In this document: piece after piece, positions 4,835 through 38,303 of the stretch
Numbering within the stretch: the stretch's first letter is position 1
Layout: each line of letters starts with the position of its first letter
DNA from: an uncultured Christensenella sp.
GTDB taxonomy: Bacteria > Bacillota > Clostridia > Christensenellales > UBA3700
DNA: 64,000 bases
Direction of reading: 5' to 3'
Assembly (NCBI GenBank): GCA_949290515.1
Contig: CASERZ010000003.1
Span: 115,464 to 179,463, forward strand
Notes under the pieces: model-generated
Told to the model about the DNA's origin: nothing
The model's input: the letters and a program-made list of their open reading frames with translations, nothing else
Database searches by the model: none
Translations under genes and position numbers: made by a program

Positions 4835-7537
4835 CTATCGTGGTATTGCCGAAGACTTGCTGTCAGTCTTTGCGGTTTTGCTCTTTGCCGTCGAAGGTTT
4901 TGCCGCGCTCTTTGCCGAAGTGCCGGACGCGCTTTTCTTTTTGCCCGACTTGACCTCTCCGTCCTTTTTGTCCGTAGGCTCCTCTATAGGCTCGTCGCCA
5001 AGATTTATTCTCGCGCCCGCTCTGGATTGAATAGAGAGTCTTCCCCTGTCGGCGGAAGAGTTTTCGCCCAGAGTAACCATTCTTCCCGTGCGTATGCTGC
5101 TTACGGGGGCGGGTGTTTCGTCATCGTCGTCCGTAGGCTCTATAAGGTCGTCGTTGAGCACGGTCGCTCTGTCCATTATAGGTTTTATTATTCCCAGTCC
5201 CGAATAAGAGGGTTTGGCTGTCTCTTTCTTTTCCGACGTTTTCTTTGTCGACTTAGCCTTGACCGTCTTAGGCTCGACGGCTGTTTCATTCTCGGACATA
5301 TCGTCAATCACGTCTGCCGCGGCAAGTGCGCTGTCGGCCGCGGGGGGAGCAGGCTTTTTGTTGACCGAGTTTCGCATAGCCTTGTTGAATTCGGCTCTCT
5401 CCTCGTCAGTAAGTATGTATTTCTTGTCATCGAGTGCCTTTAGCCTTACTACGTTGACCTGTATCTTAGGCTCGTAGCTTTTGATACCTTTTTCGTACTC
5501 CTCTACGGGTGCTATATCAAACCATACCGACGCGTTGTCCTCGTACCACAGCGGATAGTTGGTACCCCATATATTATTTTGAACGAGGAAGGATATTCCG
5601 TACTTGCTGTTTTCGAGTTTGTTATCGAAACGCAAAAGTTTTCCTCTGCCTAAAGATACGGGAACTGCCTGTTTGGGCTGCAACCTGAAAGTCTTGCCGC
5701 CCGCATCGAATTCTATACCCTCGGTAACGGAAAGATTGCGTCCGCCGTTGGGCACGATTGCGTAGGGACTGAGCTTTTGTCCCAGCTTGTGATAGAATAT
5801 CTTGTCTCTGTCGGGAGATATTCCCAGATGCAACCATATCTCTTCGGGAAGTCTGCTTACGTCCTTGTCCGTCCATTCAAGACGCAATTGCATACAGTTT
5901 TCAAAGAATATGTACTGCACGGTGAGTTTCCTGGGCATTCCCAGCTGAGGCATAATCTGCTTTCTGCCCGCTAGTCTGACGGTAACTCTCTCAAACTCCT
6001 TGGTCTTATCGTATACCGCTTCGCTCATCGTATAGGGGAAATTGCCCTGCGGGTAGTACTTTGCCACTTTTCTCAACTTAGGACGACCGAAATCGGGTAT
6101 TGCCCACGTAAAAGTCTTGTACAAAGCTCTGTGATAATTTTTAAGCCAGAACTTAAAGTCCTTAGGCCCCAAACTCTTGTAGTCGACTATACTCTCTTGG
6201 TTATTCTCTATAAGAGCGCGGTTGCCCATAAAGAGGTTTTTAGGCGCGCCGAAAGAATTGAGTTCCAACTTCCATTTTCCGCATTTGACGGGCATATCGG
6301 GAAAAACTCTCGTGCCCTCGGGATAACAACACTCGTCGGGTCGCAACGCTTTGAGTTTTGTAAACGCTTCGATATAAAGTTTCAAAGGCAAAGCTTCGAT
6401 AGCCTTTATGACGTAATCGCGCTGCTCGTTCCACGATTTGGTCATACGCGTATATCTGCCCTTGCCGCCGCGCTTTTTCATAAAATCTCTGAGAAAAGGC
6501 AGACGGAAAATTCCGTAACGCGGTATTTTTGCGTCGGCCTTGCGTGCCTCGATAAAGTCGGGTTTCAAATAGTTGTCGAAATCTCTGAAAGCGTTGAGTA
6601 TGCCTCTTCCCGCCGTATGCTCGGCAAGACAAAGCAAATTGTCGGTAAACACTCTGTAAGCTTCGCTGTCGGGAGAAAGCTGTTTTTTTCTTACCCACTC
6701 GTTGCGCATATCCTCGAGCATTCTGAGCGCGCCGTATTTGTAAGGGTCGCTGCTCACGCCGTGTATCCACGTATCGCCTATCTCGCGCTTTACCACGGGC
6801 AATTGGTCTTTTATCTCCCAAAGCTTTTGGGCAAAGTCGTCCATAGCACCCGCTACTACCTCATAGCCTTTGTACTTTTTCTTTATCTTTTCAAAATTTT
6901 TGAGTACGGTTTTTGCGTCACGGGGGCCGCAGTTGTCCATAGAGTGGTCAAACACAAGCACTTCTTCGAGCGCGGGATGAGTTACGGTACCGCCGTAACT
7001 GCCCTCGTAGACAACGATTATTTGCGCGCCGTCGCACTCCCACACGAATATAGGAGGTACTTGGGGCATTGCAGACGTACGGTTGACGCCTATATGCAGC
7101 ATCTTTATGCCGTGCTTTGCAAGTAGGGGGACTATACCGATTGTATGCCCCGGGACGTCCGTCATCTTTGCCGCAACCGTTTTGCGCGAAAATCTCTTGT
7201 CAAGCTCCTTGACTATTTTCAAGCCGTCCTCAAAAAGTCTTACGTCCTCCAGCTCGCTCTGCACGGTGAAAGGCATTGCGTGCGCGACGATATCTCCTCT
7301 CAGACAAGCTTCTTCGAGCTCTCTTACCCTCTTTTCGTCATCGTCTCTCAATGCGCGGTCTATAAGCCACGAGCCGAGAGTCCATACGAATTTTTTACCG
7401 TCGGTATTGACTTCTTTTGCTATCTGAATAGCGTTGGGGATATATTTTTCGAGATACTTGTCTACCACTCTCTCAGCGAGATTGGTATATCCCAGGTCCA
7501 AATGAGTTTTGGAAACTACGTAAACGGTTTTTGCCAT
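4835..7537 (-). CDS. DUF5054 / glycoside hydrolase family 38 N-domain-like protein with a roughly 175-aa low-complexity K/S/A/T/D/E-rich C-terminal tail
   Basis: N-terminus MAKTVYVVSKTHLDLGYTNLAERVVDKYLEKYIPNAIQIAKE...WTLGSWLIDRAL matches the KTHLD.G.T / W..GSWL pattern of DUF5054 (GH38-like) proteins. No signal peptide. The tail ends ...KKKSASGTSAKSAAKPSTAKSKTAKTDSKSSAIPR. Confidence 0.6.
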   Translation of the reverse strand: MAKTVYVVSKTHLDLGYTNLAERVVDKYLEKYIPNAIQIAKEVNTDGKKFVWTLGSWLIDRALRDDDEKRVRELEEACLRGDIVAHAMPFTVQSELEDVRLFEDGLKIVKELDKRFSRKTVAAKMTDVPGHTIGIVPLLAKHGIKMLHIGVNRTSAMPQVPPIFVWECDGAQIIVVYEGSYGGTVTHPALEEVLVFDHSMDNCGPRDAKTVLKNFEKIKKKYKGYEVVAGAMDDFAQKLWEIKDQLPVVKREIGDTWIHGVSSDPYKYGALRMLEDMRNEWVRKKQLSPDSEAYRVFTDNLLCLAEHTAGRGILNAFRDFDNYLKPDFIEARKADAKIPRYGIFRLPFLRDFMKKRGGKGRYTRMTKSWNEQRDYVIKAIEALPLKLYIEAFTKLKALRPDECCYPEGTRVFPDMPVKCGKWKLELNSFGAPKNLFMGNRALIENNQESIVDYKSLGPKDFKFWLKNYHRALYKTFTWAIPDFGRPKLRKVAKYYPQGNFPYTMSEAVYDKTKEFERVTVRLAGRKQIMPQLGMPRKLTVQYIFFENCMQLRLEWTDKDVSRLPEEIWLHLGISPDRDKIFYHKLGQKLSPYAIVPNGGRNLSVTEGIEFDAGGKTFRLQPKQAVPVSLGRGKLLRFDNKLENSKYGISFLVQNNIWGTNYPLWYEDNASVWFDIAPVEEYEKGIKSYEPKIQVNVVRLKALDDKKYILTDEERAEFNKAMRNSVNKKPAPPAADSALAAADVIDDMSENETAVEPKTVKAKSTKKTSEKKETAKPSYSGLGIIKPIMDRATVLNDDLIEPTDDDDETPAPVSSIRTGRMVTLGENSSADRGRLSIQSRAGARINLGDEPIEEPTDKKDGEVKSGKKKSASGTSAKSAAKPSTAKSKTAKTDSKSSAIPR

Positions 7538-25011: not shown

Positions 25012-25042
25012 AAAATCCCGAAGTTTTGCTTCGGGATTTTTT
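25012..25042. terminator. bidirectional terminator; 3' boundary of the TIR operon
   Basis: 12-bp stem aaaatcccgaag/cttcgggatttt, loop ttttg. Confidence 0.85.
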
Positions 25043-25057
25043 AGCGGATTGAAATTT

Positions 25058-26386
25058 TTATCTTCTTGCTTTAAACAACATAAATCCCAGATTGAAGAAA
25101 AAGTCTTCTTCTATAAATTCTTCTTCCATCTTAGGATAATTGTTCTCAAGCCATTCTGCGTTATGCACGACGGTCTTGTCTTTAGGATTACGGCGCGCAA
25201 AATCGGCAAAGTCTTGCTTTACGAATGAAAAATAAATCTCAAACAATGCCAGTCTGTCGTCATAATCCATACCTACGGTGTTTATGCCGTCTTTAAGCAA
25301 TTCAATTTTTCTGAATCCTGATTTACGCAGCAATCCGTAAATCTGTCTGCCGCTTTTTCTGTATCCGCTCAGGGGGTCCTGTGCGCACAAACCTATTGCC
25401 GTTTCAAACATTCCGTCCTTGTCGGGATAAGCAATGTTGAAACCGTCATCTATGTCCTTGACAATCACTACGGCGTCGGGTTTTGTGAATTTGCGTATCG
25501 TACGAAGCATTTTTATAGGATTTTTTATATGCAATAGCACCATCGAAATGTTGACTACGTTAAAATCGCTTATGCCGCGTCTTTTGCAAATATCTGACAG
25601 CTTATCTTCAAAATCGTCGCTTTCCAAATCGCATTGCTCAAAGAATATCTTATCGTTCCCGAAAGATTCGTTGGCTATATCGACAGTCCCCTGACTGTAT
25701 TCCAGCCCGAGCAAAGCCGTAAGGTTTGACTTGTTTCCCAAACGGTTCATTATAAATTCGCCGTTGTTGCTGCCCACGTCGAGCACACGCATATCCTCCG
25801 TTTGGGACGCAACCTCGTCATATAAGAATTTGTCGAATTTCTCCAGCAAAATACGCTGTTTTTTAAGACGCTCCGTTTCCTTTTTATCGGTGGAATCGTA
25901 ATATGTATTTGAATGTCTTTCGCAGGATTTTTTTATCTCTTCGTTTACAGGACGTATGATTGCCTTGATTTTGTTTTTAAGCTCCTGCACAGCGTTTTCT
26001 ATTCCTTGCAAAGAAGCGTCTATCCAGTGCATACGTTTGACATAGTACTCCATAGCCTTTGACAAATCCTTGTCGTCCAGCTTGAAAGGAAGTATAGTCA
26101 ATTCTCCCTGATTGTCGATAATCCTCTTATAAGCCATCTCGACTTCGTTGAGTACGTGAGGCGACTTAGACGACTCGTTGTTGAGCAATACCACAAAAAC
26201 GCTTGCGCTGTCTATAGCGTTTACTATACTCGTAGCGTAATCGCCTATAACGTCGCGGGGCGCATACCAGCACCTTATGCCCTCATTTTCAAGTTCGCTG
26301 CAAATTCTGTCAACTACCGATTTGAGGCTGTGCTCGTAACTCAAAAATACATCTACCCTAGAAGTATCCTTATCCGATTTTTCCAT
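25058..26386 (-). CDS. TIR domain - class I SAM-dependent methyltransferase fusion protein
   Basis: N-terminal VDVFLSYEHSLKSVVDRICSELENEGIRCWYAPRDVIGDYATSIVNAIDSASVFVVLLNNESSKSPHVLNEVEMA is bacterial TIR pattern with a conserved Glu. C-terminal MRVLDVGSNNGEFIMNRLG (motif I-like) ... FNVVNISMVLLHIKNP...KPDAVVIVKDIDDG (motif IV-VI-like). The ATG at 26386 follows GGGGAG; the track's longer start at 26461 would overlap the GNAT gene. Confidence 0.75.
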   Translation of the reverse strand: MEKSDKDTSRVDVFLSYEHSLKSVVDRICSELENEGIRCWYAPRDVIGDYATSIVNAIDSASVFVVLLNNESSKSPHVLNEVEMAYKRIIDNQGELTILPFKLDDKDLSKAMEYYVKRMHWIDASLQGIENAVQELKNKIKAIIRPVNEEIKKSCERHSNTYYDSTDKKETERLKKQRILLEKFDKFLYDEVASQTEDMRVLDVGSNNGEFIMNRLGNKSNLTALLGLEYSQGTVDIANESFGNDKIFFEQCDLESDDFEDKLSDICKRRGISDFNVVNISMVLLHIKNPIKMLRTIRKFTKPDAVVIVKDIDDGFNIAYPDKDGMFETAIGLCAQDPLSGYRKSGRQIYGLLRKSGFRKIELLKDGINTVGMDYDDRLALFEIYFSFVKQDFADFARRNPKDKTVVHNAEWLENNYPKMEEEFIEEDFFFNLGFMLFKARR

Positions 26387-26406
26387 CCTTAATCTCCCCT
26401 GATATT

Positions 26407-27036
26407 TTAGCTGTCTATTTTTATGTTTTTTACGGTATGCAGTCTTATCATAGAATAGCATCTTACCTTTCCGTTTCCGTATCCGCCGTAATCGTCGTAT
26501 TCGTAAAGTATCCTGAATCCGTTGTCACGGTAGAGCTTTACCGCGGTTTCATTGGAGGTAAGCACGGTAAGCATTATGTTTGAATTGCCCGCCATACGTA
26601 TTACTTCCTTTACCATAAAATCGCCTACTCCGCGTCTGCGGTATTCCTTGCGGACGCATACGTTGCACGCCTTGACTTCGGGTTGGTAATTATGTGCTTC
26701 CTTAAAATACTTGCTTACGGCATTGAAAGATTGAGGCAAAGCTACGCCCGCTTCGATAAAAGCCATCCTCACCTCTTCTTCCTGCCAGTCGTCGCCGTAC
26801 TTGAAAATCGCTATCATACCCAGAATGTCTTTGTTGTCCAACGCCAGATAATAACAGGACCGTTTAAAGATACCGCTATCGCGGCGGAAAAGACAGGGCA
26901 AAACTTTGACCGCGTTTTCGTACGACCCAAACAAATCTTTGTATATGAACGGGTCAGTCTCCATAAGCAGTTCGGCAATAGTATAGATATCGTCATCCGC
27001 GCGGAGTCTGCGTATTTCCCAATTATCTTTTGTCAA
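26407..27036 (-). CDS. GNAT-family N-acetyltransferase
   Basis: NVCVRKEYRRRGVGDFMVKEVIRMA (R-x-x-G-x-G/A acetyl-CoA motif) and NETAVKLYRDNGFRI. TTG start at 27036 with a GAGGAAGA RBS, overlapping the upstream gene by 14 nt. Confidence 0.8.
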   Translation of the reverse strand: MTKDNWEIRRLRADDDIYTIAELLMETDPFIYKDLFGSYENAVKVLPCLFRRDSGIFKRSCYYLALDNKDILGMIAIFKYGDDWQEEEVRMAFIEAGVALPQSFNAVSKYFKEAHNYQPEVKACNVCVRKEYRRRGVGDFMVKEVIRMAGNSNIMLTVLTSNETAVKLYRDNGFRILYEYDDYGGYGNGKVRCYSMIRLHTVKNIKIDS

Positions 27037-29368
27037 GTTCGTCTTCCTCGTAAATAATCAAAATAGGTTCTATCCACAACTTGAGAGATTCTGCCGACCT
27101 CTGTTTGTTGGGCAGACAATAATATTTCTCGTTGAGTTTATATCTGAATTCGCTGAGCACCTTAATATTGACGTCCTGACCTTTTGCGGATATAATCGAA
27201 AAGTTGTTGATGTGATAACCGTCACCCGTCTGCTTTGCGTACTGATAAGTAGCGACAAAAGGGAATATTGCTTTAAGCGACAATTCGATATCCCATACGT
27301 CCTTGTTGTTGCGCTCGCCTGTCTGCAAATATCTGCATACCTCAATGACCTTGTTTATGAGCGAATAAGCTTCGGAATTAGTCGCGTTGTCCGCATTGAC
27401 TCTCCAGCAGTCTTCGAGGCTTTGCGTAATGTAATCGCAATCCATAAGCTGTTGACGTCCCAGCATCTGTTTGAGCACTTTGTAGCCTTCTTTGCCGGGC
27501 ACGTACTCATTGCACACTTCTTCAAGCATAGCAAAAATTTTCTTGTGGTCGCTGGCGGTGTTTTCTATAAGCTTTTTGTATTTTGCCGCCTCGGCATTGA
27601 ATATCACCTGTGCCTCGCTCTGATATGCTTCTATTTCCTCGTCGGTCAGAACTCTGTAATAGGATTCGTTTTCAAAAAGCATTTTCTGCTTTGTGTACTT
27701 GATAAGACCTCTGTAGAAAATAATCAGGGTGCTTACTGTCTGACTGACTATAGCCCTCGTCTTCTCTATTTTCTGCTTAGGCTTTTCGTTGAAGTCGTCG
27801 CGTATGCTTTCCAAAAGCTGTATGCGCGAACGGATACTGAGCGGGAAACCCACTTTTTCGTCCACGACCTGATTGCCGTTGACGGCGCGCGTAACGTTGG
27901 CTACAATGGTACGGACTTGTACTTCGACGCGTATTGACTCCTTCTCTCTGTCATACACAAAAGCACCTCTGCCCACGCCGACGCTGTTTCTGTAATGAAT
28001 CTTCTCTTCTTCTTTTTCTATTTCTTTTTTTGCTTTGGCAAGTATTTCCGACGAAGAAAATAGGTCTCTGCCGAAACGTAATTCCAGATTCTTGACAAGC
28101 TTCTGAAAAGCCTGTGAATTTGCCGAAAAAATCGTTTTGAGAAGTTTACCCGCCCCTTCTTCCACCATCAGTATCGCTATTATTACGTCCCATTGCAGCG
28201 ACATTGTATTTTCTTTCGAGGATGAGAAAAGTATTCGGAATCTGCTGTCGTCGGCATAAGTTCTATAGATATTATGCTGGTCTGTACGGTCGAGTATATC
28301 CACGACCGCAAGCGCGAGATTTCGGATATATTTGTAGTTTATCGCGTAAAAGTCTTCGATAATGGGTTTGTTATCGGTAAAATTAACGAAGCCTTTTTCC
28401 CCGAAAAAATTTTCTGCACAAAATATTTCGTAAGACTGTTTTACGAAGAATACGTTTTCGTGGTCATAGTCGGACAATACGCTTTCGTCTTCCGCTATAA
28501 TCACGCTTATAAAAGTCGATGTGGGTTCAAATGACACGTAATTGAGTTTGACGCCTACTATATTCGTGTCGCCTTGCATTTCAAAGGCATCGCCGCCGCT
28601 TACCGCATCGCCTTTATCTGTAATAAATTCTGTTCCGGCAAGATAGTAATAACTGCGCGCTACTTTGATAAGACAATTGAAAGTGTCAATATCTCCGACA
28701 AATTCTTTCTGCGTGAAGAAGTCGTCGTTTCTCCACAATACTTTCTGAAGTTTTACTCCGTCCTGCGCCTGTCCGTTTTGGTAGAATACCGCGTTGTGAT
28801 TGACTTCGAGTTTTGCCGAAAGATTTTTAAAAAAGGCAAAGTTCTTGACAAAATCCATAAATTCGTCAATGCGGTCGCTAACGTTAGTGGAATCGTTAAA
28901 ACGCGAATCCGTCCTCGCCTTTTTAGCCATATAAGCCATACGGGCAAATTCCGTACTCTGGAAAATGTCGTGAGTTATTCTCAGCTCCTGAGAGATTACC
29001 CCGTTGAGCGCGATATCTATCTGCAAATCCATCAGTATGCTTTCCATAACCTCGTAAGACAATTCGTTGAGGATATACATTCTGCGCATTACCTTGAATA
29101 TTCTGATAAGGTCGTTGTCGGTAGGTCCTTCGTCAATTTCGTTGTCTACCAACGACCACTTTCTATATCTGAAATAGACGTAATGATAAGTCATTATCAG
29201 AAGCTTGGAAACATAGTAAAGTATCTGGGTTCTGTCCCCCAGAAAATCGTCTCTGCGGATATCGTTGCCGAACAGCATATTGCGTACCGTCTCGTCGGGA
29301 ATCATTTTGTTCAGCAACTCTTTTGCAGAGTTACATTTTTGCGCTATGGTTACCTTGGTCTCTGCCAT
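27023..29368 (-). CDS. large hypothetical protein (about 781 aa), no recognisable domain
   Basis: Long uninterrupted ORF inside the operon. The ATG at 29368 lies 5 nt after GGAG; the track start is the GTG at 29374. Predicted largely helical, with a charged coiled segment AKAKKEIEKEEEKIH. Confidence 0.75.
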   Translation of the reverse strand: MAETKVTIAQKCNSAKELLNKMIPDETVRNMLFGNDIRRDDFLGDRTQILYYVSKLLIMTYHYVYFRYRKWSLVDNEIDEGPTDNDLIRIFKVMRRMYILNELSYEVMESILMDLQIDIALNGVISQELRITHDIFQSTEFARMAYMAKKARTDSRFNDSTNVSDRIDEFMDFVKNFAFFKNLSAKLEVNHNAVFYQNGQAQDGVKLQKVLWRNDDFFTQKEFVGDIDTFNCLIKVARSYYYLAGTEFITDKGDAVSGGDAFEMQGDTNIVGVKLNYVSFEPTSTFISVIIAEDESVLSDYDHENVFFVKQSYEIFCAENFFGEKGFVNFTDNKPIIEDFYAINYKYIRNLALAVVDILDRTDQHNIYRTYADDSRFRILFSSSKENTMSLQWDVIIAILMVEEGAGKLLKTIFSANSQAFQKLVKNLELRFGRDLFSSSEILAKAKKEIEKEEEKIHYRNSVGVGRGAFVYDREKESIRVEVQVRTIVANVTRAVNGNQVVDEKVGFPLSIRSRIQLLESIRDDFNEKPKQKIEKTRAIVSQTVSTLIIFYRGLIKYTKQKMLFENESYYRVLTDEEIEAYQSEAQVIFNAEAAKYKKLIENTASDHKKIFAMLEEVCNEYVPGKEGYKVLKQMLGRQQLMDCDYITQSLEDCWRVNADNATNSEAYSLINKVIEVCRYLQTGERNNKDVWDIELSLKAIFPFVATYQYAKQTGDGYHINNFSIISAKGQDVNIKVLSEFRYKLNEKYYCLPNKQRSAESLKLWIEPILIIYEEDELDKR

Positions 29369-29380
29369 AATCACTCCGTA

Positions 29381-30271
29381 TTATTCTGTTATCAAATCTG
29401 CAAACGCCTCGTACATTTCGAGAGCCTTCTGCTCGTCGGGAGAATGTTTTTCCATATTGTAAAGGATATCCTCTCTGAACTTGAATCTCACAACTTCAGG
29501 CACGCCGAATCTTCCGTTTTCGAGCATTCCGAAGTTGACGTCGTTGTACTTTATGATATCGCTGATTTTATTCTTGATTTCGTTCTTGACTGCCTCGTAA
29601 TTGTAGGGTATATCGTCGAGAACGATATTATCCGAGGGTACAGCGTTGGGTACGATAATATACTTCTTATTTGCCACCTTAGGGTCGAAGCCCGCAAGGA
29701 AAGAGTATGTACCCTTTCTGAATTGCAAAGTGATACGCATTACGGTAACGAGTTTTGACGACAAACGCAGACTTACGTCCGCAGTCATCTGACTTCCCGT
29801 AGGGCAATCGAAAATCATACCGCAACAATCGAAGTCTTCGCAAAGAGCCTTGATGTCGTCAAAGGGATTGCCTTCTATGTAATAGCTGTTGCTGTCCTGT
29901 TCGACGCCGATTGCGCCCTCTGTTCTCGCAGGCAAAAAGAGTATGCTTCTTTCTTCGAATCCGTATACGTCGCCTATTCCTACGAGTGCCTGAAAAAAGG
30001 GATGCGCCGCTATGTCCTCAACGCACGAGTATCTGCCGGGATACGAACCCGCGATAATATTTTGCGTATACAAAGCCGCTTTCTGCGCCTTGTGCGAATA
30101 AAGGAATGTCAAACCCGCGCTGTCGATATCCATATCGAGAATGAGCAGCGGTCTTTGAGGCGTAGCTTTTAATTTCTTTGCCAAAAATGGTATTGTGTTG
30201 TACAACAACGAGCTTCTGCCCGAGCCGCCCTTATAAGAAAAATATGCCAATGTTTCCATACCTGTATCCAC
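29381..30271 (-). CDS. ParA/MinD-like (SIMIBI) P-loop ATPase with degenerate Walker A
   Basis: METLAYFSYKGGSGRSSLLYNTIPFLA compares with the canonical KGGxGK[ST]. Followed by LLILDMDIDSAGLTF and IFDCPTG (Walker B-like). Alternative start is the ATG at 30259; RBS AAGGAGAG. Confidence 0.65.
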   Translation of the reverse strand: MDTGMETLAYFSYKGGSGRSSLLYNTIPFLAKKLKATPQRPLLILDMDIDSAGLTFLYSHKAQKAALYTQNIIAGSYPGRYSCVEDIAAHPFFQALVGIGDVYGFEERSILFLPARTEGAIGVEQDSNSYYIEGNPFDDIKALCEDFDCCGMIFDCPTGSQMTADVSLRLSSKLVTVMRITLQFRKGTYSFLAGFDPKVANKKYIIVPNAVPSDNIVLDDIPYNYEAVKNEIKNKISDIIKYNDVNFGMLENGRFGVPEVVRFKFREDILYNMEKHSPDEQKALEMYEAFADLITE

Positions 30272-30277
30272 TCTCCT

Positions 30278-32380
30278 TTACTGTCTTTCGCCGTTGATAA
30301 AGCTCAAAATTTCGCCGTTTTTGGTCAAAACGATTTTCGTCAGCCAGTCTTTGACTTTCTTGCCGACCTTGTCGGTAATCTGGAAGCCGCCTTCTTTAAG
30401 TATCTTGCCGAAATACTTGTGCAGAATATACTTGTCGACGACTTGCTCGAATTCGCTGTCCTCGTCTGTTGCGATTCTCTTGCTTAACGCCTCGATGAGA
30501 TAGCGGTCGAAGTTATCAGTCATAGTCTCGTCTATAATCGCGATAATTTCTTTTATGAGAGGTTCGCGGTTGACGGTAAGTTCTCTGATGGTCTTGTCCT
30601 TTTCCGCTATTATCTGCTTGTAAGACTCCTTATCCTGCGACCACTCTTTTCTCAGAGCTTCGATACGTTTGTCAGCCTCGGTCTTGAGTTTTTCTCTCTC
30701 GTTTTTAAGTACTTCTTCAGGCTCTATGTAGCATTCTTCGTACTGCTCGTAATACTCGTAGAAGTTGAACAAGGCTTTGATAAAATAGTTTTCGCTGGTG
30801 ATATTGTAGCCTTCTTTATCCCAAGCCCACTCTTTTCCTTTATCGCTGTCCGACCTGTTGTCGAGTATGAGTTTGAGATATTCGATATTCTGCTTCTGAG
30901 GATACTTTATAAGATAACGCGATACTTCGTTGTAAGCTCTTATAAGCAAAGGCAAAAGGCTTGCCACTTGTATTCTCTGTCTTCTGAGGACTTTTGCAAG
31001 CGGAGCAACCGCCGAAGGCATCTTTTCCTTAAAACTGAGTACGTACTGCTCGACGATATAAGTCTTGTCCTCCTTGAGGAGATACTTGTAGCATCTGAGA
31101 ATATTCTGAAGCGCGTACTGCATTTCGTCGAAAAATTCGTCGCCTTTACCCATTATGTCGTAATCGAGGTCGATACCTGAATAGATAAGTATGAGTACGT
31201 GCAATACGGTATTGATTACGGCATCGTTTGTGGTACTGTTTTCGATATCGTCAAAATCCATCTCTACGTAATTCTGACCTATAAACTTGGATGCCAAATC
31301 TATTTCGTTGCCTATAAGACCGTTGGCGCGCATTTCCTCGTATCTTCCCGCCGACATACATTGCAGCTGGAATTCTTTGAAAACCTTGACTATAAGTTCG
31401 TAAAATCTCTTATTTTGCGTATAAATGTAAGAAGGTGCTTCGTTTATACGGTTTTTGTCAGCGTCCTCGAATACTTCCTGCAAGGATTGATATACAGACA
31501 TATACGCACTGCAAACAGAATAAGTCATATACATCGAAGGCTCGTACTCTTCGTCAGTTTCTGACACCTTGAAGAAGTTCCAGCCCAGATATCCTACCAG
31601 ACTGCTCTTTGCCATCTTTCCGCCGATAGAATAATGTATCGTCTTTTTAGCAGGTATGCACGCGCTGCAAATCCAGCCTATCGTGTATTTGACGAGATGT
31701 TCTATCATCTCCGTCATTTTGGCAGAAGTTACAGGCTGCGATTCGAATGTAAGCGTCAGACGGTGTCCGTCATACTCCTGTCGTATTATCATATCTCGCG
31801 TTTCGACCAAAGATTTGAGTACGTTGCAAGCCGACTCGACGCAGGTATTGATTGCAAAAGCGTCGTCGTCGTCTTCGTAATCGTTGCTCTTTACGAAAGG
31901 GGTCATATTGAAAGTAAGAAGCTCTTTGCCGTAGTCGAGATTATCTCCCATAGCAACTATCTTTTCGTATACTTCACTCGTAAAACCTATCTGTTTGAAA
32001 ATATCGTTGAGCGTATGGTCGACTATGTCGGTATATGACGACATATCCATACCGAAACCGTTGAGAGAGGATATAGCCTGCATACCCAGACATTGAGTCA
32101 AAAGTCCCACCTGAGTACGGTCCATATCCGTATTGTAAAAACCTCTTGCAAATTTCTTAGCCTGATTTCCTTTGCCCGAATTATACTTCTTGTTGAACAA
32201 AACTTTGGCAATTTGCTGAGCAATTTCCTTTTTGTTCTTGTATCGGTTGAAAATTACCTTGGAATCCGACCTCTTGTCTATGATATCCGTCAACGCTCTG
32301 TCTTCATCGTTCATCTCGGCAGTTTCGTTGACAAAAGTATTTTTTTCTTTCGTCAAATCCTGACTTGTTTGTTCTTGCAT
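30278..32380 (-). CDS. large hypothetical protein (700 aa), no recognisable domain; C-terminal coiled-coil
   Basis: Long ORF with RBS GGGGGGAG. Helical repeat-like body. Coiled segment EEVLKNEREKLKTEADKRIEALRKEWSQDKESYKQIIAEKDKTIRELT. Confidence 0.75.
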   Translation of the reverse strand: MQEQTSQDLTKEKNTFVNETAEMNDEDRALTDIIDKRSDSKVIFNRYKNKKEIAQQIAKVLFNKKYNSGKGNQAKKFARGFYNTDMDRTQVGLLTQCLGMQAISSLNGFGMDMSSYTDIVDHTLNDIFKQIGFTSEVYEKIVAMGDNLDYGKELLTFNMTPFVKSNDYEDDDDAFAINTCVESACNVLKSLVETRDMIIRQEYDGHRLTLTFESQPVTSAKMTEMIEHLVKYTIGWICSACIPAKKTIHYSIGGKMAKSSLVGYLGWNFFKVSETDEEYEPSMYMTYSVCSAYMSVYQSLQEVFEDADKNRINEAPSYIYTQNKRFYELIVKVFKEFQLQCMSAGRYEEMRANGLIGNEIDLASKFIGQNYVEMDFDDIENSTTNDAVINTVLHVLILIYSGIDLDYDIMGKGDEFFDEMQYALQNILRCYKYLLKEDKTYIVEQYVLSFKEKMPSAVAPLAKVLRRQRIQVASLLPLLIRAYNEVSRYLIKYPQKQNIEYLKLILDNRSDSDKGKEWAWDKEGYNITSENYFIKALFNFYEYYEQYEECYIEPEEVLKNEREKLKTEADKRIEALRKEWSQDKESYKQIIAEKDKTIRELTVNREPLIKEIIAIIDETMTDNFDRYLIEALSKRIATDEDSEFEQVVDKYILHKYFGKILKEGGFQITDKVGKKVKDWLTKIVLTKNGEILSFINGERQ

Positions 32381-32392
32381 AGTCTCCCCCCG

Positions 32393-33574
32393 TTATCTGG
32401 TGTATTTTTCTAAAAGTTTGTCTATATTAATCGTAATGCAGGGTCTTATTCCGCACATCACGTTTGAACCTACGTTTACTGTCATAGGACTGTATTTCTT
32501 AAAATAAGCCGTTACCTTTCCGTCGAGTTTTCCCCAGAACATAGGCCAAAAACTGCTCTTGCGGTAAGACTTGCAGTAATCAGTCTCGACGTTGGCGGTA
32601 ATAACGTTGTCGAATTCTTTTAGCGATTCTATATCGGGCAATCCCGCTTCTTCTATACAGCTTCTGATATCGTCGTCATCTACCGCATTTTTGATAAAGC
32701 TTTCAAAATAACCTTGCAAATCTGCTCCGTTGCACTTGTCCAGCACGTGTTCGGCTATGGCAACCGCTCTGGTATTGTCGTTTTTTAATATAATCCATCT
32801 GAGCGGTCCGTGAATAAAACCGTTGCCGTTTTTTATTGTCGCCAATCCTTCCGCAGTCTGCTTTACCCCGTCCTGAATTACAAATTCCCCGCTCGCCTTT
32901 TGCTGAGGAAAGCTTCCCAAACGAATAAAAGAAATCCCGTTTTCCTTGCTGGCAATAGGAAGTCTTGACAGCTTGTCCAAAGCGACGTCGTCGCTGCAAA
33001 ACAGGTTTTCGTCGTAATTCTTGAGTTCTTCTATAAGCTTGGTGAGATGAAAACCGTTGTCTGTGCGGTTAAGATAAAATACGGACGACTTGATGTTTTT
33101 CAAAACGTTCTCTACCCTCTCCGCGGGGAAAGCCGCGTCGAGTTGCTGCGCAGTCATATCCGCGCAAGATATGTATGCGTCACGCACAGTGGCATTTACC
33201 GTCGACGAATTCACCGAAACCGGAAAAAGCTTGAAGTCCTTCCTGCCGCTGTCCTCAATCTCTCTGTAAATTCTCAGTTCTTTTTCGCAAGCCGCGCTCT
33301 TGACCATATCCGCGCTGAAATAAAGTATAATTCCTGCGCATTGAGGATTGCGAATCATATCCTCTACCGTCTTATCCCACTCGTCACCCACGGAAAGCTT
33401 CTTGTCATACCAGTAATTGAGACAATTGTTGTACAATACGGACAAATCGGCATACACGGTATCGGCATCCTTGTGTGCATAACTGATAAACATATATCTG
33501 TCAGTCTTTTTCCACGTTTTTCTGTCCGAAAAGCACAACGGCTGTCGGTTTTTGTCCTGCAAATTCTCTTCCAT
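32393..33574 (-). CDS. TIR domain protein with a C-terminal DUF6273-like domain
   Basis: YMFISYAHKDADTVYADLSVLYNNCLNYWYDKKLSVGDEWDKTVEDMIRNPQCAGIILYFSADMVKSAACEKEL is TIR_2 pattern with a conserved Glu. The C-terminal part (FIRLGSFPQQ..., PLRWIILKNDN..., FWPMFWG..., MCGIRPCITINI) resembles the W.VL ... GVRPA pattern of DUF6273. There is no SD before the ATG at 33574; the alternative start is M28 (33493). Confidence 0.7.
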   Translation of the reverse strand: MEENLQDKNRQPLCFSDRKTWKKTDRYMFISYAHKDADTVYADLSVLYNNCLNYWYDKKLSVGDEWDKTVEDMIRNPQCAGIILYFSADMVKSAACEKELRIYREIEDSGRKDFKLFPVSVNSSTVNATVRDAYISCADMTAQQLDAAFPAERVENVLKNIKSSVFYLNRTDNGFHLTKLIEELKNYDENLFCSDDVALDKLSRLPIASKENGISFIRLGSFPQQKASGEFVIQDGVKQTAEGLATIKNGNGFIHGPLRWIILKNDNTRAVAIAEHVLDKCNGADLQGYFESFIKNAVDDDDIRSCIEEAGLPDIESLKEFDNVITANVETDYCKSYRKSSFWPMFWGKLDGKVTAYFKKYSPMTVNVGSNVMCGIRPCITINIDKLLEKYTR

Positions 33575-33580
33575 ATAAAT

Positions 33581-33609
33581 ATAATAAAGGATTTTATGCG
33601 ATAAGTCAA
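33581..33609 (-). promoter_or_regulatory. promoter of the TIR operon, positioned for a leaderless or near-leaderless mRNA
   Basis: Minus strand TTGACT (33604-33609), 17 nt spacer, TATTAT (33581-33586), then only 6 nt (atttat) before the ATG at 33574. Confidence 0.55.
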
Positions 33610-33749: not shown

Positions 33750-33783
33750 TACAATATTATAAACACATTCGGATAATTTGCCT

Positions 33784-36033
33784 ATGATGACTCTTATCAA
33801 TCAAAGTACAGTATTTTTCGACGAAAAAGACCTGTTGCATACCGACGAAGAAACTAGCGACAGACTACGCGACGACAACGGTAATTCTTTTAATTTCAAC
33901 AGAGATATAGATAAACTTTGTTTTAAAAACGCACTCACACGTTTTTTGCTTTCGGGCACTAAGGAAGACGCTTACGACATCTATTTTTGTTTCAACGAGA
34001 TATTCCAGTTGTTGGGTGAAAAGAGCGAAGGCATAAACACTCTTCTCTCGCTTCTCTATCAGCACGAGGCAAACGCCGCCTCTCTGCTGATGAAACACCG
34101 CGACCACTACTCTCACTCCGTATACATATTTGCTTTGGGGTTGGCAATCTTCTGCAACAACAAAAAGATGCGCGACGCTTTTTCGGGTATTTACGGCGGG
34201 GATAAACTATATGACAAATTCCTCAAATACTGGGGAATATGCTCGCTTTTTCACGACATAGGTTATCCTTACGAGATATCGTTTAATCAGGTTTTGGACT
34301 ACGGCAAAAAAATCGACGGTGACGTTTCGTCGGATTTTCTTTCACTGGCATATTCAAACTTCGACAACTTTGTACGCCTCACGGACGAAGAAAAGACAAA
34401 ATGTCGGCTTTTCGGCGAAGGAATAAACGATTTGGACATTAACACCCTTTTTGCAAAGTATGTTTGCGACAATTTCGGCGCAATCGGCAACAACCCGCAA
34501 AAAGACCTCGAGACTGTTTCGCAGTGCCTAAAAAGCCGAATCGTAAAACCTTCAAAGTTTATGGACCACGCTTTTTTCAGTGCCGTTATACTTATTAAAA
34601 AACTGCTTTCAACTCCTCAGTTCGTGCTGGACAAGCCCGCAATGGACAGCATAGCGGCGATACTTCTTCACAACAGCTTTTACAAGCGCACTTACAAAGA
34701 CGAGATAAGACGCAATATCGGCTATAAACAAATAAGCCTTTCATCTCACCCGCTGGCATATCTTCTTATGCTTTGCGACGAGCTGCAATGCTGGGACCGT
34801 ATGCCCTACGGAGAAAATACAAAACTGCAGAATTACCCTTGGGATATGGATATTACCGTGGGAGACAGAAGCATCAGATGCGTTTATTATTATTCGTCTC
34901 AGCCTGACGAAAAAACAGCACTCAAACAATGTACTCTCGCTGAGCAAATCAACGAAAGCGTCGTCGACACTTCCGAACTAGCTTCTCTCAACGTGCAAGT
35001 CAAAGAGAAAAGCAAAACAAAATGCGTATACAAATATCTCTCAGACAGCAAGTTTATCGACTTGCAAAAAATGGCTAGCGCAATAAACGCTTCGTATACC
35101 GAGGATTGCAACGCCGACAATATAGAGAATATGAACAAGGAGTATGCCGAACTCTCTCTCGAATACAAGCTGTCCAACATAGCGCAGGCTAAACACTATA
35201 TACAGCATATAGAAAACATAGGCTGTTTCTTCAGCGACAAACAGCTCGACCTCACGCCCGTAACGGATTTTTCAGAGGACGAAAAAGAGTATCTCGCACG
35301 TTGCGAACATATCCGCTGGGCAAACGAAAAGGTGGCTATGGGCTGGAGGTACGGAACGTATTCAAACCGTGCCGAGCGCGAACGCAAACGTCTTCACAAG
35401 GACCTCGTTCCGTACGACTATCTCCATTACGGAGAACAGAAAAAAGACTGGTACGTAATCGACAATATGGTAAAACAGCTCGATAAATTCGGCATAAAGA
35501 TTTACCGTACGTCAAACAACCTGCCCCCTTACACAGTGGGCTGCGTAGGACACAGAGACTTATCACGTATAGAAGGATTTGACGAAACGGCTGTAAGAAA
35601 AAAAATCAGGCTGCATCTCAAAAGTCTCGCTCAGGATTACAAAGTCACAATGTACAACGGATTTGCCAGAGGCGCAGACCTTCTCTTCGCCGAAGAAGCT
35701 TACAATTGCGGCATAGACGTAATCGCAGTACTTCCCGTACCTTGGGACGAATTTATTGCCGAACACGAGAACAACGGAGTAAAATTTATGCAGCTTCTCG
35801 CTCAGACGAAACAGGTTATCGTGCGTCCGCACATAGTGGCAAAATACAAAGAAGTAAGCCGTTATATATCAAGCAAAGCCGACGAGATGCTCGTACTCTG
35901 GGACGGCAAGGATAAGGACATCAAGGACGAAAAAGGAAACCACGTAAATATCGGAGGAACATTCGACACCGTGCGCAGACTTGTCAATACCGATATGAAA
36001 ATCCTGCATTTCGGAAAAAGCAGAACATTGTAA
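33784..36033 (+). CDS. HD-domain - RyR-domain - SLOG (DUF1273/YpsA-like) fusion protein
   Basis: HD motifs: HRDHYSHSVYIFALGLAIF ... SLFHDIGYPYE ... LLMLCDELQCWDR. RyR: EKEYLARCEHIRWANEKVAMGWRYGTYSNRAERERKRLHKDLVPYDYLHYGEQKKDWYVIDNMVKQLDKFGIKIYR. SLOG: VGCVGHRDL...YNGFARGADLLFAEEAYNCGIDVIAVLPVPW...ADEMLVLWDGK...IGGTFDTV. First ATG at 33784 (track start is the TTG at 33778); no obvious SD. Confidence 0.7.
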   Translation: MMTLINQSTVFFDEKDLLHTDEETSDRLRDDNGNSFNFNRDIDKLCFKNALTRFLLSGTKEDAYDIYFCFNEIFQLLGEKSEGINTLLSLLYQHEANAASLLMKHRDHYSHSVYIFALGLAIFCNNKKMRDAFSGIYGGDKLYDKFLKYWGICSLFHDIGYPYEISFNQVLDYGKKIDGDVSSDFLSLAYSNFDNFVRLTDEEKTKCRLFGEGINDLDINTLFAKYVCDNFGAIGNNPQKDLETVSQCLKSRIVKPSKFMDHAFFSAVILIKKLLSTPQFVLDKPAMDSIAAILLHNSFYKRTYKDEIRRNIGYKQISLSSHPLAYLLMLCDELQCWDRMPYGENTKLQNYPWDMDITVGDRSIRCVYYYSSQPDEKTALKQCTLAEQINESVVDTSELASLNVQVKEKSKTKCVYKYLSDSKFIDLQKMASAINASYTEDCNADNIENMNKEYAELSLEYKLSNIAQAKHYIQHIENIGCFFSDKQLDLTPVTDFSEDEKEYLARCEHIRWANEKVAMGWRYGTYSNRAERERKRLHKDLVPYDYLHYGEQKKDWYVIDNMVKQLDKFGIKIYRTSNNLPPYTVGCVGHRDLSRIEGFDETAVRKKIRLHLKSLAQDYKVTMYNGFARGADLLFAEEAYNCGIDVIAVLPVPWDEFIAEHENNGVKFMQLLAQTKQVIVRPHIVAKYKEVSRYISSKADEMLVLWDGKDKDIKDEKGNHVNIGGTFDTVRRLVNTDMKILHFGKSRTL

Positions 36034-36122: not shown

Positions 36123-38303
36123 ATGACTGCCGTCAACATTATCAGCGCAAGCTGTCTCTTACTTATGTTTACAGAGGCACTTATCATTGCGATAAAATTT
36201 TTGTCAAAATCGCGTTATGACAGAATTAATTACATAAGGTCGTTTAAAAAAGGCAGATGCTTTTTAATCTACCCTATCGCGTTCGTGCTTTACCTGACGG
36301 GAAAGCTCTATGCCGGTATGTCCGTAGCCGATGCCGTATTTATGTCCGTAAACAACGTAGTGATTCTCGTAGTATTGCGATACAATCCCGCAGACATAGG
36401 ATTGCTTATAAAAGACAATTCGTTTTTTGCGGCAACAGTATATATATGTTACGTCTTCGTTACAATCAATGCCGTAATATTTATACTTTCTGTATGCAAC
36501 CAACAAATCGTCAACGCTATCGCAAATGCGAATTTCAAACTTAGCAAACAGAAAAAATACATCGTTATCGGCAACAATACAGACAGCTATAAGATTTACG
36601 ATTCTATCAACTGCAAGACTAAGATACTTCTCGACGCCGCAGGAAAGGATGCAAAAGTCGCAAGCGCAGAATTGTATCGCAGAAGAATAAAGTACAATCT
36701 CCTCGGAAAAACCGCGTGGGATAATATCGCAGATTATTGCATAAAAAATTCTTCCCCCGTTCATTGCACGGTCATAATCAACACTCAGGACGATGAAACA
36801 AACCTCAAACTCTGCACCAAATTCACTCAAGCACTCGCAAAGCTCCGCGATTCGTCACTAGAAGACGAACACGTGGCATTGTTCGAGCGCATTGACGTAT
36901 TTGTATTTGGCAATGCAGAACTTGAATCTTTGTATCTCGATATAGCAGACAAATCTTACGGCTGTATACATTACCTTACCAGACACAGAATGATAGCTTT
37001 CGACTTCGAGGACAACTATCCTTTTGCTTCGTTTATGAATGATGATTCCATAGATTATTCTAATGCTTTACTCAAAGACAATGCTCAAATCAACGTGGCA
37101 ATGCTGGGATTCGGTAAAGTCAACAGAGAACTCTTCAAAATGGCTACGGTAAACAATCAGTTTGCCGGCGGCACAAAAGAAAATCCTATCGAGCGAAAAG
37201 TCAATTACTACGTGTTTGAGAAGGGAAAAAGCAGCAATAAAAATCTCAATCACAACTTCTTTAGATACGATACCGAATTTTCCGACTTGTCTGACAGCGA
37301 AAAGAAAAATTATCTACCCCTGCCGCCCTCTCCCGCAAACGTAGTTTTCGAGGAGAATTTCGATATTTGCCAAAGGGATTTTTACAAACGCATACACGAC
37401 ATCTTCGCTCCCGAAAAAAATACCGTCAAAAACAATTTTCTGATTATTGCCCTCGGTCACGATACCGAAAACATAGACTTTGCAAAAAAATTAATCGAAA
37501 AGAAAAACGAGTGGCAACTCGATAATCTCGTCATATTCGTGCGACTTAGAAGCGACGGCCTTGCAAAAGCTTTCAAAAACGCTTTTGCCAAACAGAATTG
37601 CTACATTTTCGGTGAAGACGCAAGGACTGTATATAACGCAGAAAAAATAGAAAAAGAAAAGTTCTATACATTGGCAATGCACCGTCATATCTCATACGCA
37701 ATAGAAAAAGCACTTAAATCAGACGCTTCGGCAGATTTGACGCAAGTCAGAAAACAAGCGGTTTACGACTGGACCGTAAATCTCTCATATTCCGAACGCC
37801 TATCGAATATATATTGTTGTCTCAGCCTGAGACACAAACTTCTTCTCACAGGACTGGATATCTGTTCCAAAGACGATAACCAAGCATTGAGCGAAAAAGA
37901 ATTTTTCGATATATACTTTTCAGGCGACCGCCCGACAAGCAATATTACCGACGACGGAAAGCCCGTGATAAACTATACTCTGGATTTTCCCGTTTCTTTA
38001 AGACGTACTCTCGCAATAACAGAGCACTACCGCTGGAACGCTTTTATGATTATGCAAGGTTTCGTTCCCAGCTCGCTGAAACAAATCCGAGAAGAAGAAA
38101 ATCACGGCAAAAACTATGCCCAACGCCGTCACGGTAACCTCACTACTTTCGACGGACTGGTGCAATTCAGAGAAATCGTTGCTCAAAAGACAGGAAAATC
38201 TCAACAAGCCTGCGACGTATTCAAATACGACTATCAGATTATGGACGATGCTTGGTGGTTCCTGCAAAAATGCGGTTTGGGGATTAAACCAAAACAAATG
38301 TAA
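36123..38303 (+). CDS. membrane protein: N-terminal TM helices, two Rossmann-like segments and a C-terminal RyR-like module
   Basis: About 4 N-terminal TM helices. KKYIVIGNNTDSYKIY and INVAMLGFGKVNRELF (weak GxGxxG-like). C-terminal YDWTVNLSYSERLSNIYCCLSLRHKLLLTGLDI followed by LAITEHYRWNAFMIMQGF...RRHGNLTTFDGL parallels the two-part RyR module of the upstream gene. There is no terminator between the two genes. Confidence 0.6.
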   Translation: MTAVNIISASCLLLMFTEALIIAIKFLSKSRYDRINYIRSFKKGRCFLIYPIAFVLYLTGKLYAGMSVADAVFMSVNNVVILVVLRYNPADIGLLIKDNSFFAATVYICYVFVTINAVIFILSVCNQQIVNAIANANFKLSKQKKYIVIGNNTDSYKIYDSINCKTKILLDAAGKDAKVASAELYRRRIKYNLLGKTAWDNIADYCIKNSSPVHCTVIINTQDDETNLKLCTKFTQALAKLRDSSLEDEHVALFERIDVFVFGNAELESLYLDIADKSYGCIHYLTRHRMIAFDFEDNYPFASFMNDDSIDYSNALLKDNAQINVAMLGFGKVNRELFKMATVNNQFAGGTKENPIERKVNYYVFEKGKSSNKNLNHNFFRYDTEFSDLSDSEKKNYLPLPPSPANVVFEENFDICQRDFYKRIHDIFAPEKNTVKNNFLIIALGHDTENIDFAKKLIEKKNEWQLDNLVIFVRLRSDGLAKAFKNAFAKQNCYIFGEDARTVYNAEKIEKEKFYTLAMHRHISYAIEKALKSDASADLTQVRKQAVYDWTVNLSYSERLSNIYCCLSLRHKLLLTGLDICSKDDNQALSEKEFFDIYFSGDRPTSNITDDGKPVINYTLDFPVSLRRTLAITEHYRWNAFMIMQGFVPSSLKQIREEENHGKNYAQRRHGNLTTFDGLVQFREIVAQKTGKSQQACDVFKYDYQIMDDAWWFLQKCGLGIKPKQM

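Follow-up and report, generated by a model that had tools for sequence, protein, structure and literature searches.

A 64,000-nucleotide stretch of contig CASERZ010000003.1 from an uncultured Christensenella sp. (hereafter, the window) carries a minus-strand gene, here called A1, whose product is a MinD/ParA-fold P-loop protein of the SIMIBI class. It belongs to a lineage of its own, termed "arginine P-loop", whose motif, KGG[SA]GR[ST], has arginine in place of the P-loop lysine. Its gene lies between the genes for two large orphan proteins, A2 and A3, in a cassette that also codes for a TIR-domain protein. Our best explanation of the whole, to which we give an even chance, is that A1 links A2 and A3 as an arginine-P-loop ParA-like switch or scaffold, and controls the TIR protein in a candidate conflict system.

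The fold of A1 and its P-loop arginine

An open reading frame (ORF) had been predicted at positions 29381 to 30271. It exists, and is found on the minus strand, the plus-strand translation of the same segment being riddled with stops. Read from the first GTG (30271), the ORF codes for 296 amino acids (aa); translation probably begins at an ATG (30259) located 13 nt past an AGGAGAG sequence, which yields a 292-aa product identical to database protein P0001. The three peptides quoted in the original prediction, FSYKGGSGRSSLLYN, ILDMDIDSAGL, and IFDCPTG, are present in the translation, as is the arginine that replaces the P-loop lysine (R15; codon AGA, 30215-30217). Assignment of these peptides to the Walker A, switch I, and Walker B elements is borne out by an alignment of the A1 family profile with A. 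fulgidus MinD, in which KGGsGR falls on KGGTGK, DlDidSaGL on DADITMANL, and ifDtpaG on LLDAPAG, and by the structural model described below. Serine in place of threonine had also been listed as a deviation; it is not one, since the canonical motif is GK[ST], and the A1 family uses both residues.

Searches with the A1 sequence yielded no significant Pfam match, including to the ParA and CbiA models (only a chance match to AraC_N was seen), and phmmer and hmmsearch runs against PDB sequences gave E-values above 0.2. Because sequence-only searches failed, the classification of A1 needed structure prediction. An AlphaFold2 model based on 44 aligned homologues, the most distant at about 30% identity, had a mean predicted local distance difference test score (pLDDT) of 92.5 and a predicted template modeling score (pTM) of 0.90. 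The top Foldseek matches of the model in the PDB were MinD (1ion, 1hyq), FlhG, FleN, Soj, McdA, and ParA, with E-values of 1e-8 to 1e-7 and a probability of 1.00. The 26 best matches were all MinD/ParA-family proteins, including one deposited as cobyrinic acid a,c-diamide synthase; their template modeling (TM) scores were 0.58-0.66 by query and 0.63-0.76 by target, at 13-18% identity. The remaining matches among the top 50 (E-values to 2e-6) belong to the same deviant-Walker-A superfamily, which also brings in BchL, the nitrogenase Fe protein, and BcsQ (6yay). The structure search places A1 inside the superfamily, as the original prediction had proposed. The fold and the three nucleotide-site motifs of A1 are real, and the only defining residue that is missing is the P-loop lysine.

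Among family profiles, the best match to A1 was NF047398, the "KGGVGR-motif variant AAA ATPase" (E 6.7e-9, 36-37 bits). The match spans the full domain, from residue 2 to residue 185 of A1 (5-188 of the 296-aa ORF), and covers approximately positions 2-183 of the 190 positions of the profile. NF047398 was the best profile for all 44 family members tested, with a best E-value of 7.9e-16, which is still under the curated cut-off. Since A1 falls below this cut-off of 90 bits, it is, by the NCBI rule, a related lineage and not a member of NF047398. Further sub-threshold NCBIfam matches among the 44 members were to BcsQ (17), ParA (9), and MinD (5), with E-values of 1e-4 to 1e-5, and one homologue, P0007, carries a precomputed PF13614 match. 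The arginine-P-loop ParA-like kind is already known, being catalogued as a curated NCBIfam model and noted in comparative genomics; within this kind, the A1 family forms a lineage apart, which scores below the threshold and has obligate partners of its own. To our knowledge, no protein of this kind has been experimentally characterized so far.

The C-terminal helix of A1 is acidic and resembles neither the membrane-targeting helix of MinD nor a basic surface for DNA binding, and the median isoelectric point (pI) of the family is 5.06. No ParB-, MinE-, or centromere-like partner was found in the cassette by a Pfam scan of the neighbors and the locus survey. A partition or cell-division role was rejected as the principal interpretation on the grounds that A1 is acidic, has no ParB, MinE, or MinC partner, and is held in fixed synteny with a TIR gene.

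Residues K10, G11, G12, G14, R15, D42, D44, D151, and G155 are invariant in the 44-sequence alignment of A1, and D46 is at least 90% conserved. The invariance of K10 agrees with the earlier statement that the signature lysine is retained. Residues T177, Q179, G183, and T184 are also invariant, with R181 conserved in at least 90% of sequences; judging by its position, the motif formed by these residues may correspond to the partner-binding region of MinD. V207 is invariant, and P204, N205, and P208 are at least 90% conserved. In the model, this PNAVP element would occupy the position where ParA and MinD contact the base and the ribose.

A1 homologues form 94 clusters, and a profile search of 1.84 billion representatives returned 1265 relatives at E-values up to 1e-3, including 172 below 1e-30. 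A motif census was made of 231 relatives, 221 of which carry the motif region. KGG is present in all 221; the complete motif reads KGG[SAT]GR[ST] in 199 sequences, KGG[SAT]CR[ST] in 21, and KGGSGAT in one, and GK[ST] occurs in 0/221. In 80 species-level loci, the arginine is specified by AGA (40), CGA (14), CGC (11), CGT (7), AGG (6), or CGG (2), and never replaced by lysine. Because all six arginine codons are used and yet lysine, which is one transition away from AGA and AGG, never occurs, the arginine itself must be under purifying selection. The Walker A motif of A1, originally described as degenerate, is instead that of a defined variant family, to which an NCBIfam model is related. The lysine-to-arginine change had been expected to be incidental if homologues carried a canonical GKT; with none of these in 221 relatives and six arginine codons in 80 species, it is not.

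The 21 sequences of the KGG[SAT]CR[ST] sub-branch are found among P0118-P0164, and have cysteine as the P-loop residue that precedes the Lys/Arg position and is otherwise glycine. The KGGSGAT variant is P0130.

The TIR-A2-A1-A3 cassette and its interchangeable enzymes

The minus-strand gene order in the window is TIR, A2, A1, A3, GNAT, and a TIR-SAM-methyltransferase fusion (SAM, S-adenosylmethionine; Table 1). The original prediction had A1 flanked by the 700-aa and 781-aa giants at distances of 6-12 nt. A gap of 12 nt does separate A1 from the ATG of the downstream A3 gene; on the other side the figure did not hold, the A1 gene starting (at its ATG) 18 nt past the stop of the A2 gene.

Related loci were collected in a scan of one genome per GTDB species, which revealed 84 relatives among 185,579 species genomes, 80 of which were kept. 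The genes of these loci were simple six-frame ORF calls searched with hidden Markov models (HMMs) built from the cassette families. The hosts are all uncultured gut or rumen Bacillota represented by metagenome-assembled genomes, and belong to Christensenellales, Oscillospiraceae, Acutalibacteraceae, Lachnospiraceae, and Bacilli lineages. The order A2-A1-A3 is found in every locus with enough sequence, and the TIR gene adjoins this trio in all complete loci but one. On contigs with homologues at 75%, 43%, and 33% identity, the order TIR-A2-A1-A3-GNAT is kept in different chromosomal surroundings. The constancy of A2-A1-A3 across all loci examined is in keeping with the proposal that A1 works with its two giant neighbors.

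In the closest homologous locus (L001), an integrase-core fragment (rve_3, 6344-6592) is located just upstream of the cassette, and the flanking genes (serpin, colicin V, and Na/Pi transporter) are wholly unlike those in the window (GH3 glycosidase and metallophosphoesterase). The fragment and the differing flanks are consistent with a mobile cassette.

The TIR protein of the cassette matches the PADLOC models ThsB1 (2.9e-6) and SAVED_TIR (6.1e-7). Its residues S31, Y32, W55, D57, W66, G81, and E99 are invariant in 64/64 sequences, and because E99 is a catalytic-type glutamate, NAD-directed chemistry is to be expected of this protein. In one lineage, the cassette is immediately preceded by a same-strand ADP-ribosylglycohydrolase gene (PF03747; L004:4996-6339), which may have a bearing on any ADP-ribose chemistry of the TIR protein.

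Homologues of A2 and A3 form 73 and 17 clusters, respectively, and the N-terminal ~200 aa of A3 are the part kept in all lineages. Neither protein has a match in Pfam, NCBIfam, or PADLOC, whether single proteins or all alignment members are used as queries, apart from coiled-coil noise in the case of A2; PDB profile searches with A2 and A3 gave chance matches only (BUD31, ficolin, and a designed protein). An AlphaFold2 model of A2, of medium confidence (pLDDT 75.7), consists of a helical body, two small beta-hairpin sheets, and a subsequent ~80-residue helix (554-636), and has no significant Foldseek match in the PDB or BFVD. A weak, non-significant likeness to (alpha/alpha)6 toroids (YihS, AGE family, D-mannose isomerase) was seen, with a best E-value of 0.15, a probability of 0.84 or less, and a TM score of 0.53 or less. 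The idea that A2 and A3 are paralogues was rejected (hhalign probability 1.5%).

A swappable amine-modifying enzyme module, which the original prediction had missed, occupies the last slot of the cassette. A separate GNAT gene, as in the window, is present in 9 species, and in 14 others the GNAT domain is fused to the C-terminus of A3 (~960-990 aa). In 38 species, the slot is taken by a tandem pyruvoyl decarboxylase similar to S-adenosylmethionine decarboxylase (AdoMetDC, SpeD-like; PF02675). This protein is 264-295 aa long, is encoded by loci among L018-L087 (e.g., L031:13142-13936 and L046:11611-12405), and keeps the [EQ]-S-H self-processing motif in its C-terminal half only. SpeD-SpeD fusions and neofunctionalization of SpeD to arginine and ornithine decarboxylases have been described (PMC10407285).

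The AdoMetDC-like decarboxylase is accompanied by a PAD_porph/agmatine-deiminase-like gene (PF04371) in 13 species; a 14th locus, which is cut short, shows the deiminase-like gene only. The PF04371 gene (E 1e-82 to 1e-89) sits between TIR and A2, and was found in L046, L048, L052, L055, L059, L063, L073, L075, L076, L078, L087, L080, L083, and L067. Eleven of these loci code for a ~600-aa TIR protein and for an A3 cut to its N-terminal ~235 aa. In L080 and L083, the TIR protein is long and the place of A3 is taken by a ~200-aa protein; L067 has a full-length A3, with no TIR detected by the HMM search of its ORFs.

Two species have a viperin-like radical SAM gene upstream of A2 (L084:6489-7589 and L085); the gene matches the PADLOC prokaryotic viperin models (E 3e-13), and TIR is moved downstream, after the A3-like gene. 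A distant branch is represented by L088:1629-9986 (GCA_016852305.1), in which the ParA-like protein is 451 aa long, with a ~140-aa insert after switch I. The gene order in this locus is A2-like, A1, a 916-aa A3-like gene with an embedded TIR, a gene for a CxxCxxCC protein, and a pyridoxal phosphate (PLP)-dependent Orn/Lys/Arg decarboxylase gene. The constant core of the cassette consists of TIR, A2, A1, and the A3 N-terminal domain; as a hub, A3 can be fused to TIR or GNAT, and the enzyme module is interchangeable.

Proposed role of A1 and comparison with known systems

ParA/MinD proteins are ATP-driven positioning machines, and in the Soj/MinD clade the signature lysine reaches across the dimer to the nucleotide bound by the partner. 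We propose that A1 is a Mg-nucleotide-binding protein that dimerizes in the nucleotide-sandwich fashion usual for deviant-Walker-A proteins; the signature lysine, the switch I aspartate pair, the Walker B aspartate, and the base-contacting asparagine are all kept. Hydrolysis would be very slow or absent, because the P-loop lysine is an arginine; in F-plasmid ParA, the K120R substitution leaves ATP binding intact, abolishes hydrolysis, and blocks the ATP* conformational change. A1 could be a long-lived, nucleotide-gated clamp, latch, or scaffold that links A2 with the N-terminal A3 domain through physical contacts with both, and governs the assembly or activation of the TIR protein and of the associated enzyme. 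A3, in turn, would carry or recruit TIR and the accessory enzyme. By analogy with the ParA mutant, the earlier suggestion that A1 is a switch or scaffold rather than a fast ATPase appears plausible.

The most probable function of the entire cassette is that of a conflict (anti-phage) system. Swapping in the enzyme slot, extra TIR genes nearby, the viperin-like variant, rare and patchy distribution, variable flanks, the invariant TIR glutamate, and the ThsB-like PADLOC matches are all counted in favor of a defensive function. The original prediction had held SIMIBI ATPases to be atypical of TIR-based systems; in conflict systems they are not without precedent, as MinD/ParA-like domains "predicted to be inactive" have been described in those of bacteria (Kaur et al. 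2020, eLife, PMC7159879).

Several observations weigh against a switch that controls TIR in a defense system. No cassette protein other than TIR matches a validated defense system in PADLOC, Pfam, or NCBIfam, and the PADLOC match of A1 to PDC-M28B is weak and N-terminal only (residues 4-58, E 3.6e-5). The MinD/ParA-like domains of known conflict systems are described as inactive effector modules, not switches (Kaur et al. 2020, PMC7159879). All accessory enzymes are of amine or polyamine type, which could also indicate a metabolic role. The sub-branch with cysteine for the P-loop glycine and the single sequence with GA could mean that the nucleotide pocket is relaxed. Finally, the cassette does not stand out in composition within the window, and its base composition gives no sign of recent transfer.

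A more far-reaching version of the defense hypothesis, which we regard as speculative and, on present evidence, improbable, is that TIR-A2-A1-A3 constitutes a new anti-phage class. In such a class, a hydrolysis-dead ParA-type dimer would serve as a nucleotide-gated sensor or latch in place of STAND, AAA+, or ABC NTPases, A2 and A3 would be new folds that recognize the invader, and the output would involve basic amino acids or polyamines. Arginine, agmatine, or polyamines required by phages might be decarboxylated, deiminated, or acetylated; alternatively, TIR might make an ADP-ribose-amine conjugate that acts as the signal.

Other explanations of A1 and of the cassette have to be considered. 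The P-loop lysine is missing in every member of the family, 21 relatives have a further Gly-to-Cys change and one an Arg-to-Ala change, and MinD/ParA-like domains in conflict systems are predicted to be inactive (Kaur et al. 2020). A1 might, on these grounds, be a nucleotide-free pseudo-enzyme whose fold serves only as a structural adaptor or, in the manner of a dominant-negative "inactive MinD/ParA" effector, disturbs cell division. We consider this to be unlikely: a dead site would be expected to drift, whereas the arginine is under purifying selection, and the signature lysine, the switch I aspartates, and the Walker B aspartate are invariant, and the asparagine is kept in at least 90% of sequences, among homologues as distant as about 30% identity. 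Moreover, A1 invariably has a gene of its own between those of A2 and A3, and is not a terminal effector module. The cassette might also code for a metabolic or biosynthetic complex that makes or remodels a metabolite derived from arginine, ornithine, or polyamines, possibly ADP-ribosylated by TIR, with A1 as an assembly factor of the large A2 and A3 subunits or an ATP-using step. Such a complex would agree with the amine or basic-amino-acid type of the variable enzymes (GNAT, AdoMetDC-like, PAD_porph/agmatine-deiminase-like, and PLP Orn/Lys/Arg decarboxylase), with the weak, non-significant likeness of A2 to (alpha/alpha)6 sugar isomerases, and with the lack of compositional anomaly. However, a single slot accommodates opposite chemistries (acetylation, decarboxylation, and viperin-like radical SAM), which is typical of modular conflict systems; the TIR protein has a conserved catalytic glutamate, with extra TIR genes nearby; and the cassette is rare, patchy (84 among 185,579 species genomes), and variably flanked. 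This makes a metabolic complex, in our estimate, less likely still than a pseudo-enzyme.

All other catalytic residues of A1 are intact, and its nearest folds are the positioning ATPases MinD, McdA, ParA, and FlhG, so that A1 could be imagined as a fully active ParA-type ATPase, with arginine doing the work of lysine, that positions the large A2/A3 cargo on the nucleoid or the membrane. We assign a distinctly low probability to this possibility, as the same substitution in F-plasmid ParA abolishes both hydrolysis and the DNA-binding-competent state, A1 is acidic (median pI 5.06) with an acidic terminal helix, and the cassette contains no ParB-, MinE-, or centromere-like partner. Almost no credence can be given to the view that A1 results from incidental degeneration of an ordinary ParA, or is a decaying gene or an annotation artifact. 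Although neither the ParA nor the CbiA model of Pfam gives a significant match to A1, the reading frame is unbroken and preceded by a ribosome-binding site, and A1 homologues form 94 clusters, with 172 representative clusters at E<1e-30. Together with the invariant motif, the synonymous codon turnover, and the confident model, these facts refute an incidental variant, a pseudogene, or an artifact.

Comparison of A1 with known proteins reveals likenesses and differences in each case. NF047398 probably corresponds to the "inactive MinD/ParA-like domain" group of Kaur et al. (2020). Like NF047398 proteins, A1 keeps the signature lysine, has arginine for the P-loop lysine, matches over the full domain, and occurs in a conflict-type context; unlike them, it has KGG[SA]GR in place of KGGVGR, and is a stand-alone protein of ~300 aa that belongs to a fixed TIR-A2-A1-A3 cassette of gut Bacillota. 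Those of Kaur et al. occur as fusions or in association with vWA-MoxR/VMAP or AP-ATPase systems, and the peptide-processing systems reported in that work come from actinobacteria. With MinD, FlhG, FleN, Soj-ParA, and McdA, A1 shares the fold (TM 0.58-0.76), KGG, the DxD of switch I, and the DxPxG of Walker B, but it differs from these proteins in its low identity (13-18%), its P-loop arginine and its acidic character, and in lacking a membrane-targeting helix as well as any ParB, MinE, or MinC partner. The F-plasmid ParA (SopA) K120R and P1 ParA K122 mutants resemble A1 in having the Lys-to-Arg change at the corresponding P-loop position, but are engineered loss-of-function partition mutants, whereas arginine is the selected wild-type residue in the A1 family. 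BcsQ resembles A1 in being the second most frequent sub-threshold profile match and in being among the Foldseek matches. It is a ParA-like assembly or scaffold subunit of a multi-protein cellulose-secretion machine rather than a partition protein. Its canonical P-loop lysine is kept, its partners BcsR and BcsE are unrelated to those of A1, and it is not known to be accompanied by a TIR.

Similarly to Thoeris and other TIR defense systems, the cassette has a ThsB-like TIR with a catalytic-type glutamate and a modular, multi-gene architecture. Unlike Thoeris, it contains no ThsA-, SLOG-, Macro-, or SAVED-type effector detectable with PADLOC, Pfam, and NCBIfam, and the three additional large or unusual subunits (A2, A1, and A3) are obligatory. 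A long A1 variant (P0175) matches PDC-M28B at 2.7e-9; no other cassette protein matches the PDC-M28 models. The cassette architecture is not in PADLOC 2.0. Nor is it included in a preprint that surveys TIR signaling systems, which makes no mention of a MinD/ParA, ATPase, P-loop, or GNAT/acetyltransferase component. Literature searches on the motif, on PDC-M28, and on AdoMetDC or agmatine deiminase in TIR or anti-phage defense yielded no description of the cassette.

Under the preferred reading of A1 as a switch or scaffold, its lineage can be viewed as a natural experiment on the ParA fold, in which hydrolysis is presumably off and the other nucleotide-site residues are kept; the active-site substitution offers a ready mutational test. 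The cassette, present in at least 80 species, unites a TIR protein, two large proteins without detectable relatives, and interchangeable enzymes of arginine or polyamine type. If it is a true immune system, it would introduce a new type of NTPase into bacterial immunity, and possibly a link between TIR signaling and polyamine metabolism. If it is metabolic, it would represent an undescribed pathway in abundant gut anaerobes.

Features of the window and neighboring genes

The coordinates of the cassette genes, of the A1 motifs, and of the putative transcription signals in the window are collected in Table 1.

Table 1. Cassette features in the window (positions are counted from the first nucleotide of the window)
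Feature	Position	Strand	Evidence
Promoter-like site TTGACT-17-TATTAT, just upstream of the TIR gene	33581..33609	minus	Consensus match only
TIR-domain protein, 393 aa, first cassette gene	32393..33574	minus	PF13676, E 5.4e-12
A2, 700-aa orphan, helical, with long C-terminal coiled coil, directly upstream of A1	30278..32380	minus	AlphaFold2, synteny
A1, arginine-P-loop MinD/ParA-like protein, 292 aa	29381..30259	minus	ORF, AlphaFold2, Foldseek, NF047398
A1 deviant Walker A, K10-G-G-S-G-R15-S16	30212..30232	minus	Sequence, alignment
A1 switch I / Walker A', D42-M-D44-I-D46	30122..30136	minus	Alignment, MinD profile alignment
A1 Walker B / switch II, D151-C-P-T-G155	29795..29809	minus	Alignment, MinD profile alignment
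A1 family-specific motif, T177-x-Q179-F-R181-x-G183-T184	29708..29731	minus	Alignment
A1 P204-N205-A-V207-P208, after strand 7	29636..29650	minus	Alignment; strand E199-207 in model
A3, 781-aa orphan, directly downstream of A1	27023..29368	minus	Synteny
GNAT acetyltransferase, 209 aa, variable cassette position	26407..27036	minus	PF13508, PF00583, E 1e-11 to 1e-12
TIR-SAM-methyltransferase fusion, 467 aa from first ATG	25058..26461	minus	TIR_2 3.5e-17, Methyltransf_23 2.2e-11
Terminator-like hairpin, 12-bp stem, T-rich tail, after the TIR-methyltransferase gene	25012..25040	minus	Sequence scan

The TIR-methyltransferase gene, which follows GNAT, is probably the last gene of the transcription unit in the window; no strong terminator-like site was found before it within the cassette unit. 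Its first ATG overlaps the GNAT gene by ~55 nt, and the real start may be a methionine 25 codons downstream. Similar TIR-methyltransferase fusions are present near the cassette in L006-L008, L036, and L057.

The cassette adjoins a divergent pair of plus-strand genes. One of them (33778-36033) codes for a 751-aa RyR-domain protein (PF02026, E 1.3e-9). The product of the other (36123-38303) is 726 aa long, has no family match, and has an N-terminus that looks hydrophobic. Relatives of one or both of these genes are found near the cassette, in varying positions, in about 25/88 loci, and the pair may be a linked second module.

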